From Escherichia phage vB_EcoM-G28: a DNA stretch of 64,000 nt. Shown here in pieces: positions 23,492 through 56,480 of the stretch. The translations under genes and the position numbers were made by a program. The notes below the pieces were generated by a model, which was given only the letters and a program-made list of their open reading frames with translations, ran no database searches and had not been told where the DNA came from. Positions within the stretch are counted from its first letter, which is position 1. The number at the start of each line of letters is the position of its first letter. The DNA lies in sequence record NC_054916.1. One strand, written 5' to 3'.

Positions 23492-24334
23492 TTAATCAAC
23501 CGCTATTGGATGAATAGCATTAAACTTATGAAACGCTTCTGATTTTTCTTTGCGCGAAACACACATGCGAAGAACCTTTAATGGCTCGTCTTCTTCACCT
23601 AATGATTTTCGTTTTTCAATATTAGAAGTTTTCCAACGAGCTTGCTCTGGAAACTCTCTATTGATTTGCTCAAGAGCTCTATTATGCTTAGAATTACTAC
23701 GAATTGAGCTGCATCCACCGGGAGCCTGTGCTTTTCCAGATACAACCAGATATTTGAACAAGGCCAAATGCGGATAACCTTGATTAATTAAATTGAGAAA
23801 TGCATACATATCTTCGCATAAATCAATTTTTCCATACCCAATTTGTTCTGTTGTAAGTTTTCCAAGGTCATACCATGTATTCGTGAATCCATATGAATTT
23901 TCACGATAATTACCCCAAGATGAAGTAATTTTAAAAATTGGTAGACGAGCATGGCCATGATAATACCCGCAATCCATGGCATCCTCAACATATTGAATCA
24001 ATTCATAGAACTGTTCACGAGTCAATTGATTGACTTTATCTACACAACGACGGTCATCTCTTTTTCGCATTGAACTCATACGAATAGTAGTATCATCGTC
24101 AATCATCCAGATTCGTTGACCTGCATACATATCAGTAATTGCTTTACGAGTACCGGCAATTCCGTTTACATCATCAGGAATAGTTATAATTTTAGCTCTA
24201 GACCCATAGGCATCATAATAAGCTTTTTCTTCATGTTCACGTACTACGATATGAGGTTCATAATCAGTTGGAAACATATCAAGGGCAGAAACTGCCCCTG
24301 CACGTTGATAGCTCGGAATTACGAATTGAATCAT
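23492..24334 (-). CDS. putative glycosyltransferase (DxD-type) at the bgt locus; candidate HMC-DNA glucosyl-modifying enzyme
   Basis: 280-aa ORF; RIWMIDDDTTI (hydrophobic strand + DDD); lies between uvsX and gene 42. Confidence 0.45.
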   Translation of the reverse strand: MIQFVIPSYQRAGAVSALDMFPTDYEPHIVVREHEEKAYYDAYGSRAKIITIPDDVNGIAGTRKAITDMYAGQRIWMIDDDTTIRMSSMRKRDDRRCVDKVNQLTREQFYELIQYVEDAMDCGYYHGHARLPIFKITSSWGNYRENSYGFTNTWYDLGKLTTEQIGYGKIDLCEDMYAFLNLINQGYPHLALFKYLVVSGKAQAPGGCSSIRSNSKHNRALEQINREFPEQARWKTSNIEKRKSLGEEDEPLKVLRMCVSRKEKSEAFHKFNAIHPIAVD

Positions 24335-24972
24335 TTAAGTGCCTTGCATTTGTCAAAATGGTATCTTGTCATATTTGGCCCACGTCCTTTTAGTCCGCAA
24401 TGCGGACATATTTTTTCTATCAAATTATGAGGTTTTCCTTTACGATTTTTAGACATCGTTTCTTTAATTATTTTAGCTTTTTCTGCGCCAAAAATTTCTT
24501 CATAAGTTTTACCAGAATTTTCCTTTGCTCGATTTATAATTCCATATGCCTGCTCATTTTTACCATACATTGGATTACCTTCGCCTTTCATTCTTTTAGA
24601 ATGATCAGGACGCTTGATTCCACGAAAGGCATTTCCGCACTTATATCTTTCTTCTGGAGATAGTTTTTTACCGTACATTCCATTTAATTTGCCTGGAAAA
24701 CTTCCTCCCCATGCTTCATTCTTTAAATTATATGAATCCGGACAATTAGCAGCATCTAAACAAGTTAAAATAATTTCTTCAACCTGTCTAAACATTGGTC
24801 CTTCATATAATATTTCTTTATTAAAGGATTTTATTCCATATTTCTTTTTAGCATGTTGCCAAACTACACCCGAACCATCATAATTCGGGTTGTGACCATC
24901 ATGACTTCCTATATACCACTTTTTAGTTTTAGGATGTTTATACTTATAAACATGTGGCACATTTACTTCCAT
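24331..24972 (-). CDS. GIY-YIG homing endonuclease (Seg-like) with NUMOD-like repeats and C-terminal zinc finger
   Basis: 213 aa; VYK-x9-WYIGS N-terminal module; repeated NGMYGK/GNPMYGK; C-terminal CPHCGLKGRGPNMTRYHFDKC. Confidence 0.6.
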   Translation of the reverse strand: MEVNVPHVYKYKHPKTKKWYIGSHDGHNPNYDGSGVVWQHAKKKYGIKSFNKEILYEGPMFRQVEEIILTCLDAANCPDSYNLKNEAWGGSFPGKLNGMYGKKLSPEERYKCGNAFRGIKRPDHSKRMKGEGNPMYGKNEQAYGIINRAKENSGKTYEEIFGAEKAKIIKETMSKNRKGKPHNLIEKICPHCGLKGRGPNMTRYHFDKCKALK

Positions 24973-32141: not shown

Positions 32142-32531
32142 TTAACGATTAAAATCAGCAGCAATTGTTTCCGCAACAATTTGAGCAGCAACAATTAGAC
32201 GTTCATCTGCATTACCGCAATAACCATCTTCAAGGCGTTCACCACATGAAGTCATAATAAATTTAGCACCAGCATTTAGAGATTCTGTCGTATGTTTGCG
32301 CATTAGTTCAATCCATTTATCACTCACTTCACGATCGATGGCTTCATAATACGCATGACGAGCAGGTGCAGATTTAATTTTGCTCTGAATAACTTCCATC
32401 GCGTTATCAGAAAGAGACAAAACCCATGCTCGACGAATTTTATTTTGGTTTTGTGGATTTGATTCAGAACGCACGTGTTTTGGCTGAATATCTTTTACAT
32501 CAACAGTATAATTCACAGTAATTTTAGTCAT
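32142..32531 (-). CDS. rpbA: RNA polymerase-binding protein RpbA
   Basis: 129-aa ORF; size/position only. Confidence 0.6.
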
Positions 32532-32540
32532 AATACACCT

Positions 32541-32732
32541 TTAGTCATAATAATCAGTAACAGTCCAAGCTTCATTTCTATTGGACATTATTTTTGTATA
32601 TTCTGCTTTAAATGCATTCCTAAGCATAGATTCAGTAACTATATGCTCTTCATTAGAAAAATTATTTCTCAGAATATATCGTTTTATTTCAGGAAAAGTT
32701 AATAAATGCTGTCCAGTTGAATATTCTGCCAC
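32541..32732 (-). CDS. hypothetical small protein
   Basis: 63-aa ORF, apparent GTG start. Confidence 0.35.
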   Translation of the reverse strand: MAEYSTGQHLLTFPEIKRYILRNNFSNEEHIVTESMLRNAFKAEYTKIMSNRNEAWTVTDYYD

Positions 32733-32742
32733 AGTTCCTCCG

Positions 32743-32750
32743 TATAAATA
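32743..32750 (+). promoter_or_regulatory. late promoter box TATAAATA (gp55-dependent) upstream of plus-strand HNH gene
   Basis: exact TATAAATA 33 nt upstream of ATG at 32784. Confidence 0.5.
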
Positions 32751-32783
32751 TGTTTATCACTCGCTGTATCAAAAGGATATGTT

Positions 32784-33500
32784 ATGAATTATAAACTAAT
32801 TTATGAAAAGTTAATCTCTAATGCTAAATCTCGAAAACTTGATTGCTATACTGAATCTCATCACATTATACCACGCTGTTTAAATGGTAGCGATGATGCT
32901 TCAAACTTAGTAGATTTAACACCAGAAGAGCACTATGTAGCTCATCAACTTTTAGTAAAAATTTATCCTTCTGAACCAAAATTAGTCTATGCTGCTAACA
33001 TGATGACAGTTTCCACGAAATACGCTAAACGCAACAATAAAACTTTCGGTTGGATTCGTCGTAAACTCTGGGAAATAGAAAAGAATAAAGAATTCTCCCA
33101 GGAGACACGAAAGAAAATGTCTGATGCAGTAGCTAATAAAGCAAGACTAACTTGTCCTCATTGCGGTAAATCTGGATTAAGCGGGAATATGAATCGATGG
33201 CATTTTGATAACTGCCCGAATCACCCTAATCCTAAAGTTAGACCACCGATGTCTAAAGAACATAGAAATAATATCTCAAACGGACTTAAAGCAATCGTTC
33301 TTGAAGAAACATCCTGCGAATTCTGCGGAATGATAGGCAAGAAATGCGTTATCGCAGCGCATAGAAATTTCTGCAAGAAAAATCCAAATGGACGCAAGAA
33401 AACTGAAAAGACTGGTACTTGCGTCCATTGTGGTAAAGTTACCACTTTCGGAAATTTATCAAGATGGCATAATGATAACTGTAAATATAAACCTAGCTAA
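32784..33500 (+). CDS. HNH homing endonuclease (Mob-like) with three tandem zinc-finger repeats, plus strand
   Basis: 238 aa; HNH core ESHHIIPRCLNGSDDASNLVDLTPEEHYVAH; three C-x2-C-G...N-x2-R-W-H-x-D-N-C repeats; AAGGA RBS; overlaps gene 46 3' end by 8 nt. Confidence 0.8.
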   Translation: MNYKLIYEKLISNAKSRKLDCYTESHHIIPRCLNGSDDASNLVDLTPEEHYVAHQLLVKIYPSEPKLVYAANMMTVSTKYAKRNNKTFGWIRRKLWEIEKNKEFSQETRKKMSDAVANKARLTCPHCGKSGLSGNMNRWHFDNCPNHPNPKVRPPMSKEHRNNISNGLKAIVLEETSCEFCGMIGKKCVIAAHRNFCKKNPNGRKKTEKTGTCVHCGKVTTFGNLSRWHNDNCKYKPS

Positions 33501-35181
33501 TCTTAGCTAAACTAAATCTACCAACTTTTTCCATCTGAATATGCTGACCATATTCTTGTGGGTCATGGTCTTTATGCGAAATTATGAAGAAGTTGGTATC
33601 CTTCAAACCATCTAAAATTTTAGCTACATTTTTAATACCTTCAGCATCAAATGCACCGTCATACACTTCATCAAGAAATAAACAACTTATTTTAACACCT
33701 GAAACTTTTTCAGCAATATCACGCCAAGTAAATAAAAGAGCAATATCAATTCGTGCTTTTTCACCTTGACTAAATGAAGCATAACTAAAATCTTCACGAC
33801 CACGGGATTTAATTGTCTCATTAAATTCTTCATCTAATGTAAACACATAATCCGCTTCCATTATTTTAAGATAATGGTTAATCTGCTTATTAAATAATGG
33901 AATGTACTTTTTAATAATAGCACCTTTAATACCAGAATCTTTGAGCATATCAGTCAAAATTCCTCTATGGTATTTTTCCATTACTAAATTAGTTTTTGTC
34001 TTAACAATTTTATCAAGTTCTTCTTGAAGCAGTGCTATTTCATCAGCGTGGTCAATAAACTCGGATGATGCTTTTTCTATAGCCGCTTTAACCTTTTTAG
34101 CTTTATCTACCGTCGTGATTAAGGATTGCTTTTTATTACGAATATCATTTGCCAATGACTGCTGAGTCTTAATATTATCTCGGTATTCATCGACAAGAAC
34201 TTTTAAATTATCACGATGTGTTGAAAGCTGTTCAAACGAATGCGTGCATTCAGAAACTTTATCTTTAATTTTAGAAACAACTTTATCACCGGAACTTAAT
34301 TGTGACAAACAGGTTGGACATAATCCACCTTCGTGATACATATTAATGACTTTATTATACGAGTCAATTTTTGATTTAATCAAAACTGCTTCTTGACCGA
34401 TTTTATTAAATGCATCAGTCGGGTCTTCATCTAAAACAATATTAACTAATCTTTCATTAGCTTCTTCTATTTCCGATTTTAGCGTTCTAGCTTCCTTTGC
34501 CAAATCGTCATACATATTCTGTAGACGAGTAAGGTTGTCACCAGTTAATTTTTTCTGGCGTTCAACGTTATCATTATATATTTTAATTTGCTGGATAATA
34601 CTATCTTTTTTAACATCAAGCACTTGGTTTTGTGAATTTAATTCACGTATTAGTGCTTTATTAAGTTTATCCATTTCAGCTAATGTTCCTACTTCGAGCA
34701 GGTCTTCGACAAGCTTTCTTCTTGCAGGAGTGGATAGGCCCATAAAAGGGGTATATCCAGCCGTGCCGAGTACGACGATCTGTTTGAAACTGGCGTATGA
34801 CATTCCGATAAGCTGTTCAAATTCTGCTTGGAAATCTTTACTGCTGGCAGATTCATTAAGACGTGTACCGTTAACGGTGATTTCGAAAACATTTGGTTTT
34901 TGTCCTCTTTTGATATAGTACTTTTTCTCATCATATTCCATCCACAGTTCAACTAAAAGTTCTTTCTTATTTGTGCTGTTTATTAATTGGCCTTTCTTTA
35001 CATCACGAAATGGCTTGCCAAAAAGCCCAAATGTGATGGCTTCTAACATAGTAGACTTACCACCGCCATTTCGTCCAGTAATAAGAGTTTTTTGAGCCTT
35101 ATCTAGTTGAATGTCAACTCCATTTTGACCAACTGACATTATATTTTTATATTTTACTCTATTAAGTTTAAATGATTTCAT
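33493..35181 (-). CDS. 46: recombination/repair nuclease ATPase subunit (SbcC/Rad50-like), gene 46
   Basis: 562-aa ORF; Walker A GRNGGGKST, long coiled-coil middle, Walker B LFLDEVYDG. Confidence 0.9.
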   Translation of the reverse strand: MKSFKLNRVKYKNIMSVGQNGVDIQLDKAQKTLITGRNGGGKSTMLEAITFGLFGKPFRDVKKGQLINSTNKKELLVELWMEYDEKKYYIKRGQKPNVFEITVNGTRLNESASSKDFQAEFEQLIGMSYASFKQIVVLGTAGYTPFMGLSTPARRKLVEDLLEVGTLAEMDKLNKALIRELNSQNQVLDVKKDSIIQQIKIYNDNVERQKKLTGDNLTRLQNMYDDLAKEARTLKSEIEEANERLVNIVLDEDPTDAFNKIGQEAVLIKSKIDSYNKVINMYHEGGLCPTCLSQLSSGDKVVSKIKDKVSECTHSFEQLSTHRDNLKVLVDEYRDNIKTQQSLANDIRNKKQSLITTVDKAKKVKAAIEKASSEFIDHADEIALLQEELDKIVKTKTNLVMEKYHRGILTDMLKDSGIKGAIIKKYIPLFNKQINHYLKIMEADYVFTLDEEFNETIKSRGREDFSYASFSQGEKARIDIALLFTWRDIAEKVSGVKISCLFLDEVYDGAFDAEGIKNVAKILDGLKDTNFFIISHKDHDPQEYGQHIQMEKVGRFSLAKIS

Positions 35182-35196
35182 TTTGTATCCAATTGT

Positions 35197-36051
35197 TCAC
35201 AATGAAGAAAATTCTTTAACTAAAGCCTGTAATGAAGCCTCTATTGGATATCCATTCTTAACTAACATTTTCCTAAACATTACATGTTTAGGACGATTAT
35301 ATGATATCCACAATTCATACAATTTATCTTTATTATCCCAATGATAGCCTTTTCGTCGAGATGCTATATGAGCTTTTCTAATCTCCGGATTTTTCCAACT
35401 AGCAGCTACTGAATTTGATATAGCTATTTTATATTCAGGTTTTGATAAAGCAGCACGAACAGCCTTTTGGTGTTTAATTTTATTTTCTTCGTTATTAAAC
35501 CATTCCCTTGAAGCAATTGAAATTTTTTGTTTTGTTTTAAAATTATTTAATCTTTCTTTGTTATCTTTCCTATTTTTTGCTACTGAAAAATATTTTAATG
35601 CCCTTTCTCTAGCAGCATTTCTATTTTGCGGATTTGAATAATACTGTTGAAGCCTTTTTGATATTGTGTCACTTACATCTTGTTTTATAAAACTATATTC
35701 AGCAGCTATTAAATCAACTTCGGCTAAAGATAAATTTTTATATGTTTTTCCTGACATCATTCTATTTAAAGCATTTAGCATTTTTCCATTTTTACCTTTT
35801 GCTAATAAGAAATGTGCTTTAAAATGATTAAAATGACTTAAATTAACTAAATTCCATGTAGATTTTAAATATTCAGGAAATATTGATTTAGGAAGCACGT
35901 GGTGTGCTTCCGTTTTACCTGGAGTTTTAACAGTTGAATTCATAGAAATAAAATTAATGTAAGACTTGGCGTCTTCTTCACTCAACGCTAATTTTTCAAC
36001 TAATTCCTTTATTAAAAATTCATCATTAATGTCAAGTTTAAAATTCTTCAC
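35197..36051 (-). CDS. HNH homing endonuclease (Mob-like)
   Basis: 284 aa; HNH core EAHHVLPKSIFPEY...NLVNLSHFNHFKAH; GTG start overlapping upstream stop (GTGA); C-terminal region similar to HNH at 55701-56480. Confidence 0.7.
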   Translation of the reverse strand: MKNFKLDINDEFLIKELVEKLALSEEDAKSYINFISMNSTVKTPGKTEAHHVLPKSIFPEYLKSTWNLVNLSHFNHFKAHFLLAKGKNGKMLNALNRMMSGKTYKNLSLAEVDLIAAEYSFIKQDVSDTISKRLQQYYSNPQNRNAARERALKYFSVAKNRKDNKERLNNFKTKQKISIASREWFNNEENKIKHQKAVRAALSKPEYKIAISNSVAASWKNPEIRKAHIASRRKGYHWDNKDKLYELWISYNRPKHVMFRKMLVKNGYPIEASLQALVKEFSSL

Positions 36052-36498: not shown

Positions 36499-37514
36499 TG
36501 TGTTGCCTCTACATATAACTGATTTGCATATTGAATAAGTGCTTCACGGTCAGAATCAGTGATGTCTGGAATTGCATTAATGTATTCTTCCATCAATGTC
36601 TGAAGAGATTGAACTTCAACTTCTTCACTATCATCTGACTCGACAGAGTTATCAATCTTTGACACAACTCGTAATGAATGCACAACTTTTTCTAGTTCAG
36701 ATTCGAACTTCGTTAGATTTTTGTCTACTTCAGTTACTATAACACGTACTGATAGATTTGTAAAATCTTTATAGTCAATTTTTCCTTTAAATGGATAATG
36801 AATTCTACGATGCCAGGTAGTGTTGTTTGGAATAAATTCCATTCGTTCTGTTTCTGTATCAAACATCCAGAACCCACGAGGGTCATTCTCGTCACCTGCA
36901 GTTAGTGTCCATGGTGTCCCAATATATCTGACGTTAGCAGCCTCAGAGATAGTATGGAAGTGACCAGACCACACTTCTTTATAAGTCTTAAGGAAATCAG
37001 GTTCAAGACCATGAGATTTCATTCCTTTATAAAAATAAAATCCATTCAGTTCCCAGTGACCAACACAAAAAGAAGCAGAAGAAGTTTTTATGTGCTCGAG
37101 AATTTCACCAGTATTTTCTTCACACATCCAAGGAATTAAATCAATTAAACATCCGTCAAAATCTACTGTAGTAGGCTTATCATACACTTTAACATTAGGA
37201 TATTTAGCCAAAAGCTCAGTAGAAGCATTTGGATGCATTACATTTTTGTAGTGGAGATCGTGATTTCCTACAATAGTATGTAATGTGATTCCAGCGTCAT
37301 CAAGCATTTGAACTATTTCACGGGCAAACTCCATAGTTTTATGTGTAATTGCTTTTCGCACATCAAAAATATCACCATATTGAATCCATACAGTAATTCC
37401 ATTTTTCTTAGAATATTCTATCGCTTGCTTAATTCCATCAATTTGAATACCGCGAATCCACTCATCATCAGCTTTAACGCCTAAATGCCAATCACCCAAG
37501 TTTAGTATTTTCAT
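36495..37514 (-). CDS. 47: recombination/repair nuclease subunit (Mre11/SbcD-like phosphoesterase), gene 47
   Basis: 339-aa ORF; calcineurin-like motifs GDWHLG, GDIFD, GNHD. Confidence 0.9.
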   Translation of the reverse strand: MKILNLGDWHLGVKADDEWIRGIQIDGIKQAIEYSKKNGITVWIQYGDIFDVRKAITHKTMEFAREIVQMLDDAGITLHTIVGNHDLHYKNVMHPNASTELLAKYPNVKVYDKPTTVDFDGCLIDLIPWMCEENTGEILEHIKTSSASFCVGHWELNGFYFYKGMKSHGLEPDFLKTYKEVWSGHFHTISEAANVRYIGTPWTLTAGDENDPRGFWMFDTETERMEFIPNNTTWHRRIHYPFKGKIDYKDFTNLSVRVIVTEVDKNLTKFESELEKVVHSLRVVSKIDNSVESDDSEEVEVQSLQTLMEEYINAIPDITDSDREALIQYANQLYVEATQ

Positions 37515-38115
37515 GGTGTCTTTTCCATCCTAATTTAGCTGCTTTTGAAACCAGTTCTTTAATTTTTCCTTTTGTCCATTCAGGACCAGGAGGTTCATGA
37601 CATAACATTTGCTTAACTCCGTTATTATACCATTTTTTACCTTTATTATGTGATGAAGCTTTAAATTTATTTGACCTTCCTTTTACATAACCTTCTGGAA
37701 TATAAGGCAAAAAGGCAGATTTTCCTGTTAATGGATCATGTGAATGTATATTTCCTTTACAATTATGAGAACCATATAATGGATGATTTTGTCCTTTATT
37801 ATCTCTTCCAAATGAACCTTTTGGAGCAGCATATGACATATTAAAGAATAATGGATTTTTAACTGCATCATGCAATCGTTGATAATATAACTCGCATTTA
37901 ATAGCTTCTTCACGCGTATCAAATTCAGCTAAAATGCATGAATCAAATAAGTGAGGATTATCTGAAAGCTCTTTATTATAAATTTTCTTATACTTTTTAG
38001 ATAAAACTGAACCATGATATCCAGCTAAATGCCTATCTAAAGACGTAGATCCAATATAAAAAGGAGGAAGTTTATCTCCGCTATATATTGTTAAATAAGT
38101 TATATATTTTTTCAT
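37492..38115 (-). CDS. GIY-YIG homing endonuclease (Seg-like)
   Basis: 207 aa; TIY-x8-FYIGST module, REEAIKCELYY; 3' end overlaps gene 47 start by 23 nt. Confidence 0.65.
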   Translation of the reverse strand: MKKYITYLTIYSGDKLPPFYIGSTSLDRHLAGYHGSVLSKKYKKIYNKELSDNPHLFDSCILAEFDTREEAIKCELYYQRLHDAVKNPLFFNMSYAAPKGSFGRDNKGQNHPLYGSHNCKGNIHSHDPLTGKSAFLPYIPEGYVKGRSNKFKASSHNKGKKWYNNGVKQMLCHEPPGPEWTKGKIKELVSKAAKLGWKRHHENTKLG

Positions 38116-54706: not shown

Positions 54707-55717
54707 TCATTTATAATAACTTCGGTGGTTTTCAAGATAGACCTTCTCAAGGAAGTCATCCCAGAAACCCATGTCCACTTTTTGCTGCATACCGTTCTTA
54801 GAAGCTTCAGTAGATGCTGCTTCTACTTGATCGACCACATCTTCCAAAAACTCTTGAACTGTTTTAAATGGATGCTTACCCAACTTCACGTCGAGAATAA
54901 ATGGAGCATCTTGGAGTGGATAAACCAAGTCACCAGTTTTGTAAATTTCCAATAGTTGGAGTCCACCACGACAAGCATGACTCAGAGCTTTCCAGTCAAT
55001 GCCCTCATTCGCTTCAGCCTTACGAGCGCGTTCGCCGTATTCAGCATCAAGTTTATTCAAAGATTGCTTAAGCTCGATAAGAGAAAGCGTTGTTTGATAT
55101 TTACGACCCAACACAGTGTAGAACGTTTGTGGGCCTGTTTTCTCATGATTATGGAACACCCATTCACAGAATTCGTTTTCTGGAAGACGATGCTTAATAT
55201 CTTCAACTTTAGTACGACGCTGCTTAATGGAACCGTCTTCTTGATAATCAACCCACTGATCAGGGATTTGATTAACTACTTTCAATACATCACGTAATGC
55301 GGCCAAACGAGAACCCTTAACGCCGTATTTAGAAGCTTGCTTGCGAACATATCCTAAATAGGATTTCATGTTAGTCGTATAAAAACGAGAACGATTGTCT
55401 TGAATAAACTTCCATACATCAGGCAAATCAGATTTAACCACTAGTTCAGGCGGAGTGTGAAGCATATCCAATGCTACAGTTTCACCATCTGCTGCTAATT
55501 TAAAGAAATACTTAAGACTGTATAGTTCATGGTCAATATCATCTTTAGTGTTTTTAGATGATGTGTTGTTAGTGTTTTTACTCATATGCTCTTTAACATT
55601 TCCGATAAGAATATCACGAGCAGGAGGAACAAAGATTTCTTTAAAATCTACATCAGATTCTGGAGTAGAAGTTCCATAAAGATGACTACCAAAATAAGAC
55701 TTAACTACAGTTTTCAT
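54707..55717 (-). CDS. Pol-beta-superfamily nucleotidyltransferase-like protein (nrdC.11 position)
   Basis: ~336 aa from ATG at 55715-55717 (track ORF extends to 55753); FGSHLYGTSTPESDVDF (GS-x10-D-x-D) plus downstream VALDML acidic strand. Confidence 0.55.
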   Translation of the reverse strand: MKTVVKSYFGSHLYGTSTPESDVDFKEIFVPPARDILIGNVKEHMSKNTNNTSSKNTKDDIDHELYSLKYFFKLAADGETVALDMLHTPPELVVKSDLPDVWKFIQDNRSRFYTTNMKSYLGYVRKQASKYGVKGSRLAALRDVLKVVNQIPDQWVDYQEDGSIKQRRTKVEDIKHRLPENEFCEWVFHNHEKTGPQTFYTVLGRKYQTTLSLIELKQSLNKLDAEYGERARKAEANEGIDWKALSHACRGGLQLLEIYKTGDLVYPLQDAPFILDVKLGKHPFKTVQEFLEDVVDQVEAASTEASKNGMQQKVDMGFWDDFLEKVYLENHRSYYK

Positions 55718-56480
55718 TATTAGACCTTTCATAATCTTCATTAAATTGTACAATCAATCGATGATAATTAGATTTTGGATATCCTAATTTACTTATATAA
55801 GTTCCGAATGACCCACGTTTAGGTCTATTTAATTTAATCCATAACTTATAAAGTAAGTCATAGTCTTGCCAATGTTTACCAGTTCTTTGTCTAATTTTAG
55901 ATGAATTTGATTGTTTCTTTTTAGTTTCAAAATTATTCAAAGATTTTTTGACTGCAGCAGAGTGTTTTTCTTTAACTCCCGGTCGTTTAAAAGCAGCTTT
56001 CACCCCTTTAGATATTTTTTCTTTAACTTCCGGTTTGTTTTGTGCTTCTAACTGGGATTCTGAAATTTTAGCCCTTATTTCAGGAAGACTTAATGTTATC
56101 GAACGTTTTTCTCTGTATTCATTAGACTTCCACATTTCTTTCATTGTATTAGAATGTATTTTTGAAAATTTTTCTCTAACTAACTGATATCCTCTTGAAG
56201 TTAATTTGAGATTTCTTCCTAAAGAATCTTCTCCAAAATTATAAAATGACCACCATGCATAAATTAATCCAGGCGAATTATAATGAATTTTAGCTAAAAG
56301 CCAATGGGCTATAAAATGCTCTCTAGCTGTTAATAAAACTAGATTATCAGAATCATCATTACCACCAATACAAGATGGAATAATATGATGCTTTTCCGTA
56401 TAAAAATTTAATTTAGATTTATCTAATTTTCTGAGTTTTCCTTTCTTAATTAAATTATTATATACTTTAGTATAATTCAT
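55701..56480 (-). CDS. HNH homing endonuclease (MobD-like by position)
   Basis: 259 aa; HNH core EKHHIIPSCIGGNDDSDNLVLLTAREHFIAH; C-terminal similarity to HNH at 35197-36051. Confidence 0.7.
   Translation of the reverse strand: MNYTKVYNNLIKKGKLRKLDKSKLNFYTEKHHIIPSCIGGNDDSDNLVLLTAREHFIAHWLLAKIHYNSPGLIYAWWSFYNFGEDSLGRNLKLTSRGYQLVREKFSKIHSNTMKEMWKSNEYREKRSITLSLPEIRAKISESQLEAQNKPEVKEKISKGVKAAFKRPGVKEKHSAAVKKSLNNFETKKKQSNSSKIRQRTGKHWQDYDLLYKLWIKLNRPKRGSFGTYISKLGYPKSNYHRLIVQFNEDYERSNNENCS

Follow-up and report, generated by a model that had tools for sequence, protein, structure and literature searches.

I-TevIII-type zinc fingers in predicted HNH and GIY-YIG homing endonucleases of a T4-like coliphage

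Zinc fingers of the form CX2CX12-13HX3C have been described in I-TevIII, the HNH endonuclease encoded by the nrdB intron of phage RB3, which contains two of them in tandem (PMC1865063). Each of these fingers binds about one zinc ion in a PAR assay, and changing either Cys pair to Ala halves the zinc content and lowers both DNA binding and cleavage (PMC1865063). For the T4 Seg and Mob enzymes, cleavage followed by repair that copies the endonuclease gene has been described (PMC2988022, PMC2790892), and the C-terminal domain varies between members of the Mob family (PMC2790892; MobE study, Wilson & Edgell 2009). Small DNA-binding modules called NUMODs are reported to be shared by GIY-YIG and HNH homing endonucleases (Sitbon & Pietrokovski 2003, as cited in PMC1564403). 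Earlier publications thus cover the finger module (in I-TevIII), the two enzyme families, and the idea that DNA-binding modules are shared (NUMODs). A literature search returned no statement that the I-TevIII finger ends Seg-type GIY-YIG enzymes or that it is as widespread as we report below, and a prior description is possible.

Here we describe two genes of a T4-like coliphage that are predicted to encode homing endonucleases of different catalytic families, both with fingers of the I-TevIII type. With a probability of about 85%, we consider these to be two free-standing homing endonuclease genes with CX2CX12-13HX3C fingers, in which the module was joined to the nucleases long ago and was not exchanged in this phage. 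For the phage itself the gain is in annotation: one gene product can be described as a Mob-type HNH protein bearing three fingers of the I-TevIII type, the other as a Seg-type GIY-YIG protein bearing one. The finding is an example of a known principle and introduces no new mechanism, and it matters little for this window, the 64,000-nucleotide stretch of DNA that we analyzed.

Two predicted endonuclease genes and their setting

The window comes from a Tequatrovirus (T4-like coliphage), and around both ORFs many Escherichia and Shigella phages match it at 98-99% identity. The two ORFs have the positions, strands, and lengths given in the initial annotation (Table 1). Blastn against T4 showed that homology ends at 32726 and restarts at 33513, with 786 bp replacing 72 bp of T4 spacer. 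The full HNH region is carried by 58 of 652 matching phage records, and this frequency together with the replaced spacer shows that the HNH gene is an optional cassette. It is antisense to every neighbor, and its final 8 nt lie within the 3' end of gene 46. Like the T4 mob genes it is free-standing, intergenic, and polymorphic for presence and absence, but its site between genes 45.2 and 46 and its antisense orientation are unlike those of all T4 mob genes. Ahead of the gene is TATAAATA, which we take to be a match to the T4 late-promoter consensus, and between this element and the ATG we read an aaGGAt ribosome-binding site. This arrangement suggests that TATAAATA may serve the cassette as its own promoter. 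The GIY-YIG ORF lies between gene 42 (dCMP hydroxymethylase) and the beta-glucosyl-HMC-alpha-glucosyltransferase gene. T4 seg genes likewise occupy intergenic sites adjoining conserved nucleotide-metabolism genes. At least 80% of the GIY-YIG query was covered in 76 of 501 records, a count confounded by the fact that some phages have b-gt and others ba-gt.

Table 1. Features of the two predicted endonuclease genes and their positions in the window (aa, residues of the encoded protein).
Feature	Position	Strand	Description and basis
HNH gene cassette	32727..33512	+	786 bp at the gene 45.2 / gene 46 intergenic site; blastn against T4
Candidate late promoter	32743..32750	+	TATAAATA, 34 nt upstream of the HNH gene ATG; read from sequence
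Predicted HNH homing endonuclease ORF	32784..33500	+	238 aa; Mob-type; between gene 45.2 and gene 46
HNH catalytic motif (aa 23-54)	32850..32945	+	E24, H26, H27, N41, H50, H54; alignment A3
Helix ahead of finger 1 (aa 106-117)	33099..33134	+	weak NUMOD3-like motif SQETRKKMS; AF2 helix
Zinc finger 1 (aa 124-144)	33153..33215	+	CPHCGKSGLSGNMNRWHFDNC, canonical CX2CX12HX3C; HMM, AF2
Zinc finger 2 (aa 178-197)	33315..33374	+	CEFCGMIGKKCVIAAHRNFC, divergent CX2CX11HX3C, followed by a KKNPNGRK linker; I-TevIII alignment, AF2
Zinc finger 3 (aa 213-233)	33420..33482	+	CVHCGKVTTFGNLSRWHNDNC, canonical unit; HMM, AF2
Predicted GIY-YIG homing endonuclease ORF	24331..24972	-	213 aa; Seg-type
GIY-YIG catalytic domain (about aa 7-95)	24688..24954	-	Foldseek on AF2 model
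NUMOD3-like motif (aa 125-138)	24559..24600	-	Pfam NUMOD3 18.1 bits, E=0.0026, under the 20.4 cut-off
Single C-terminal GIY-YIG finger (aa 189-209)	24346..24408	-	CPHCGLKGRGPNMTRYHFDKC, canonical CX2CX12HX3C, signature GPNMTRYHF; HMM, AF2

From its sequence, the HNH ORF is predicted to encode a homing endonuclease of the Mob type. The N-terminal 125 residues are Mob-like, with 36% identity to RB3 MobE (BLASTP, E=2e-23), and phmmer matched the protein to MobB (1e-28), MobE (3e-27), MobD (2e-21), and MobC (1e-20) of T4. It has the N-terminal MNY..IY...HHI[IV]P...N...EH..AH domain in common with the T4 Mob family, and the ORF matches phrog_655 at 9e-69. The HNH motif residues listed in Table 1 are invariant in A3, an alignment of 27 sequences. 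Mob-type domains are in general poorly covered by the Pfam HNH model, and PF01844 scored 16.9 bits on this protein, under its cut-off of 21.4. A search of the PDB with the family profile matched the HNH domains of McrA (4e-4) and Cas8f-HNH, with E-values ranging from 4e-4 to 4e-3, which supports an HNH fold. The AF2 model of the protein had a pLDDT of 89.7. Pfam NUMOD3 gave a sub-threshold match (E=0.14) at the helix that precedes finger 1.

The 213-aa ORF is, by the same kind of comparison, predicted to encode a Seg-type GIY-YIG homing endonuclease. In phmmer searches it matched Seg proteins of T4 (SegA 1.6e-12, SegC 3e-12, SegB 7e-12, SegD 2e-9, SegE 6e-8), and the ORF matches phrog_314 at 2e-31. 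Like the T4 Seg enzymes and I-TevI, it has an N-terminal GIY-YIG domain and NUMOD3-like linker motifs. [quoted passage not shown] A Pfam scan of the protein gave no GIY-YIG match at E<=1, and TIGR01453 scored 25.1 bits, short of the cut-off of 56; PF19835 or PF01541 is present on several of its homologues. The catalytic residues of I-TevI are Tyr, Tyr, Arg, Glu, and Asn. Residues Y9, Y20, E65, and N85 of the GIY-YIG protein are conserved in alignment A4, in which no equivalent of I-TevI Arg27 was identified.

Four zinc fingers and their relation to I-TevIII

We searched all six frames of the 64-kb window with the regular expression C..C-x(8-16)-H-x(2-4)-C and found matches at four places only, all in the two endonuclease ORFs. 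We then built a hidden Markov model from 31 finger units of other proteins, leaving the window out, and scored it on all 184 window ORFs. Finger 1 of the HNH protein scored 60.2 bits (independent E=1e-18), finger 3 scored 46.5 bits (independent E=2e-14), and the GIY-YIG finger scored 42.8 bits (independent E=3e-13). Finger 2 scored 2.6 bits on this canonical profile (E=1). There was no match outside the two endonucleases among the 184 ORFs, and the three strong scores lie well outside what chance would give. The spacing between the second Cys and the His is x12 in fingers 1 and 3 and in the GIY-YIG finger, and x11 in finger 2, a minority type found in 22 of 520 units. AF2 predicted a strand-strand-helix arrangement for all four fingers, at residues 121-143, 175-196, and 210-232 of the HNH protein and 186-208 of the GIY-YIG protein. 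These blocks had pLDDT values of about 84-94, and in each the helix carries the His and the last Cys.

The initial annotation had reported three tandem repeats of one consensus in the HNH protein and a single copy at the end of the GIY-YIG protein. The single copy is there, as a canonical C-terminal finger. The HNH protein does contain three copies of the motif, but the quoted consensus is exact in finger 1 only; finger 3 matches the profile well and lacks one Gly, and finger 2 departs from the module in its x11 spacing and its low score while retaining the CX2CX11HX3C pattern and aligning within the finger pair of I-TevIII (see below). Stretches of 33 and 15 residues lie between the fingers, which are therefore not head-to-tail repeats. 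Blastn of the HNH gene against itself and against the GIY-YIG gene gave nothing significant. This null result rejects a repeat or recent copy at the DNA level.

At the protein level, 13 of 21 residues agree between finger 1 and the GIY-YIG finger. As nine of the 13 are not ligands, the similarity is real and is not confined to the cysteines and histidine. Short Cys/His motifs arise often, and finger 2 has little in common with the others beyond the ligands and CxFCG..GK, as would be expected if the four segments were not homologous and shared only a generic metal-binding pattern by convergence or chance. Against this stand the nine non-ligand identities, the P, H, R, W, F, and D that are nearly invariant in 34 finger units, the fold predicted alike for all four fingers, and leave-out E-values of 1e-13 to 1e-18 with nothing else among the 184 ORFs. 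We regard convergence as the least probable of the explanations considered here, and it is already refuted for three of the four segments, namely finger 1, finger 3, and the GIY-YIG finger. The sequences confirm that these three are a homologous module with more in common than metal ligands. The same module thus stands behind unrelated HNH and GIY-YIG catalytic domains, as had been proposed, with profile E-values of 3e-13 to 1e-18.

The canonical spacing is that of the I-TevIII fingers. Against I-TevIII, finger 1 gave a BLASTP E-value of 4e-6 and the GIY-YIG finger one of 4e-4. Residues 174-236 of the HNH protein, which span fingers 2 and 3, align with residues 207-266 of RB3 I-TevIII at 37% identity (E=7e-8). 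Because these two fingers align with the I-TevIII pair, finger 2 corresponds to the first, divergent finger of that enzyme. The KKNPNGRK linker between fingers 2 and 3 resembles the KLNPNR linker of I-TevIII, and both proteins begin with an HNH domain, continue with a long helical linker, and have their fingers after it. The two proteins differ in their nuclease domains, which is of the HNH_3 type (EIHHKDGNRENN) in I-TevIII and of the Mob type in the window protein. I-TevIII is also intron-encoded and has two fingers, whereas the window protein has three, with the additional canonical finger preceded by a NUMOD3-like helix.

We also scanned a six-frame translation of the first 150 kb of T4 with the HMM and the regular expression. 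To our knowledge, the last 19 kb of T4 contains no endonuclease gene. In the 150 kb scanned, the finger was found only in the defective I-TevIII (HMM E=5e-13) and in ORF nrdB.1, which lies directly downstream of the short mobE ORF and has the sole finger near a T4 mob gene. The HMM found no finger in SegA-G or MobB-D in this part of T4, and the finger is also absent from RB3 MobE. The window HNH protein, with its three fingers, therefore differs from MobB, MobC, MobD, and RB3 MobE, and the GIY-YIG protein, which ends in a CCHC finger, differs from SegA-G. It also differs from I-TevI, in which the finger is a Cys4 element of the linker and the DNA-binding end is a helix-turn-helix; neither the HMM nor the regular expression gave anything at this Cys4 finger in the T4 translation.

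Scans of both window proteins with Pfam, NCBIfam, and PHROGs returned no dedicated finger model. They gave only sub-threshold matches to Zn-ribbon, Lar, and NUMOD3 models. The Zn-ribbon matches that the fingers draw are spurious, so the finger has no curated model in Pfam-A or NCBIfam.

Distribution and inheritance of the finger

We built a 32-position profile from 34 finger units and ran it on 1.84 billion representatives of clusters at 50% identity. Matches numbered 9,386 at E<=1e-3, of which 1,681 reached E<=1e-10. The consensus of the finger is TCPHCGKxGxxxxMxRWHFDNCK. Each of the 176 proteins examined had 1-9 fingers, most of them located in the C-terminal half. The linkers that join fingers were long and of irregular length, mostly 10-21 aa, and they often began with K-x-NPN. 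Finger-only proteins of 91-124 aa exist among the matches. Pfam identified NUMOD3 (40), GIY-YIG (20), SegE_GIY-YIG (19), HNH (10), HNH_3 (6), and HNH_5 (6) on the top 146 matches, and local classing of 167 finger proteins gave 52 of the Seg type, 45 of the Mob type, and 11 of the I-TevIII type. The usage of W and Y at finger position 16 is equal in these three classes, which indicates that variants of the finger do not segregate with nuclease family. In this respect the finger is like the NUMODs, which recur as small DNA-binding modules in varying order behind GIY-YIG, HNH, and other homing-endonuclease domains. It differs from them in that Pfam has NUMOD models, whereas the I-TevIII-type finger has none in Pfam-A or NCBIfam. 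A unit this widespread, probably old and joined many times to different nuclease domains, would account for the module being common to both enzymes of the window.

The initial annotation had attributed the common module to shuffling within one genome. Recent exchange in this phage lineage, in which one endonuclease gene copied its finger segment from the other, might be suspected from the presence of both genes in one 64-kb window and from the match between finger 1 and the GIY-YIG finger, where 9 of the 13 identical residues are also encoded by identical codons. In-frame nucleotide identity between these two fingers is 41/63, however, and the best in-register match between the genes is 14 nt (E=0.34), in keeping with the null blastn result. 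The sequence flanking the fingers is unrelated, and finger 1 is closer to metagenomic fingers than to the GIY-YIG finger of its own genome; with that of P0015, for instance, it is identical at 16 of 21 residues (counted by eye). The C-terminal finger is kept in 54 of 63 homologues of the GIY-YIG protein, mostly with the GPNMTRYHF signature, and orthologues of the HNH protein retain its three fingers in the same layout down to about 57% identity. Because homologues of each protein keep their fingers, each gene appears to have inherited them in its own lineage. We therefore consider exchange within this genome very improbable, and the claim of shuffling at that level is not upheld. Older joining of the module to each nuclease, the reading that we favor, fits the conservation of the fingers within each gene's homologues.

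Tail swapping can instead be seen when the GIY-YIG protein is compared with its homologues. Seven close homologues lack the finger. The one of these that was aligned, P0197, matches residues 7-180 of the GIY-YIG protein at 69% identity before its sequence turns into an unrelated tail, placing the breakpoint near residue 180. The six others have tails similar to that of P0197. The tail of P0211 weakly resembles the DNA-binding helix-turn-helix of I-TevI (PF20987, E=0.042, below the cut-off).

The finger, which has so far been characterized in I-TevIII alone, is among the commonest DNA-binding modules of phage homing endonucleases by these counts. It occurs fused to domains of at least five nuclease models and yet has no curated family model or solved structure. 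A domain model and one DNA-bound structure would improve the annotation of thousands of phage proteins, and would also reveal whether the fingers suit compact, monomeric site-specific nucleases.

Proposed function and likeness to classical zinc fingers

By analogy with I-TevIII, each finger would fold as a strand-strand-helix unit around one zinc ion. The fingers, together with the NUMOD3-like helices that precede them, may form the extended DNA-binding half of each enzyme, and this half would anchor the nuclease domain beside its site in related phages that do not have the gene. Cleavage there and repair by recombination would then carry a copy of the gene into the genome that was cut, a process called intronless homing. 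From their described relatives, the two window proteins are thus expected to bind zinc, bind DNA, cleave it, and promote homing, and a part for the fingers in target recognition, for which the analogy is to I-TevIII alone, is likewise conceivable. The +/-400 bp flanks of the two genes have a longest common word of 10 nt, within the range of 9-13 nt obtained by shuffling; with no common word beyond chance, the flanks give no hint of a common target.

The fingers could be homologous and nonetheless act as a spacer or ruler, a redox switch, or a dimerization aid, with specificity provided by the NUMOD3-like helices and the linkers. [quoted passage not shown] C-terminal deletions of I-TevIII that remove the fingers destabilize or abolish dimerization (PMC1865063), but its dimerization interface comprises residues 194-241 and does not directly involve the fingers (Robbins et al. 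2007, PMC1865063). [quoted passage not shown] The widely varying linker lengths, mostly 10-21 aa, are also unlike those of regular DNA-reading arrays, whereas proteins with 5-9 fingers, or with fingers alone, are hard to explain as rulers. On balance we think a purely structural or regulatory role unlikely and favor fingers that contribute to DNA binding.

The fingers also resemble classical C2H2/C2HC fingers in their C-x2-C-x12-H-x3-[H/C] spacing and predicted strand-strand-helix order, and their CP.CGK knuckle matches that of consensus and designed C2H2 fingers in the PDB. They differ from classical C2H2 fingers in that the last ligand is Cys, the linkers are long and irregular, and the preferred groove is probably another. 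A PDB search with the finger profile found only the CPxCGK knuckle of designed C2H2 fingers and no solved relative. Pfam zf-C2H2 scored 21.8 bits on the protein P0010, against a cut-off of 25.2. The best Foldseek matches were C2H2 arrays (CTCF, ZFAT, and TFIIIA), and the best E-value was only 0.016, so the resemblance of the predicted fold to the classical one is not statistically established. Tandem finger arrays fused to a nuclease also recall engineered zinc-finger nucleases. We think it improbable, though conceivable, that the I-TevIII-type finger is the phage counterpart of the classical beta-beta-alpha finger, in arrays of up to nine units, and that these proteins are natural zinc-finger nucleases. 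If they were, and if every finger recognized a short piece of DNA in a predictable way, the addition and exchange of fingers could alter target specificity, in evolution or by design.

C-terminal tails of the GIY-YIG homologues

The GIY-YIG protein (24331-24972) ends in a single CCHC zinc finger. Its close homologues P0197, P0207, P0211, P0212 and P0214-P0216 have a different C-terminal tail and no finger. Alignment of P0197 with the GIY-YIG protein showed 69% identity across residues 7-180 and no relationship beyond this point. Thus, the domain swap has a clean breakpoint near residue 180. In P0211, the tail bears a weak resemblance to the helix-turn-helix of I-TevI, at a level (E=0.042) below the cut-off.

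Fingers in proteins without a nuclease domain

Eight metagenomic proteins of 91-218 aa (P0096, P0098, P0103, P0124, P0148, P0153, P0171 and P0010) lack a nuclease domain and are made up of two or three fingers. These may be stand-alone DNA-binding proteins or pieces of endonuclease genes. In T4, the ORF nrdB.1 encodes NUMOD3-like repeats and a single canonical finger, CPHCGKKVNKGNALRWHYDKC, and lies directly downstream of the short mobE ORF in a different frame. This T4 ORF has the appearance of a DNA-binding tail split off from MobE.

Other homing-endonuclease-like genes in the window

The window contains at least five homing-endonuclease-like genes, counting that for a MobD-like protein that is matched by the HNH protein at 4e-20 (phmmer). 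The MobD-like, Mob-like and Seg-like ORFs contain no zinc finger. The Mob-like ORF is sited between genes 46 and 47, the position of 46.1 and 46.2 in T4, and the Seg-like ORF separates gene 47 from the large ORF that follows. The family phrog_10820 matched by the latter bears the PHROGs label "HNH endonuclease".

Finger-bearing T4 ORF and fingerless endonuclease ORFs of the window
Feature	Coordinates	Strand	Length	Match or annotation
T4 nrdB.1	AF158101 139716-139967 (= L005 39716-39967)	-		'hypothetical protein'
Mob-like HNH endonuclease ORF	35197-36051	-	284 aa	phrog_655, 5e-45
Seg-like ORF	37492-38115	-	207 aa	phrog_10820, 1e-94; also phrog_314
MobD-like HNH endonuclease	55701-56480	-	259 aa	phrog_655, 1e-56

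Orientation and flanks of the HNH cassette

All neighbors of the HNH gene (32784-33500) are on the opposite strand. Within the 32727-32783 stretch there is a late-promoter-like TATAAATA box (32743-32750), and the gene shares its final 8 nt with the 3' end of gene 46 in a convergent overlap (region 33493-33512). The flanks of the inserted cassette diverge unequally from T4, with 99.4% identity on the 45.2 side (32401-32726) and 88.5% at the gene 46 3' end (33513-33896). This unequal divergence could result from a co-conversion tract or from target-site immunity changes.
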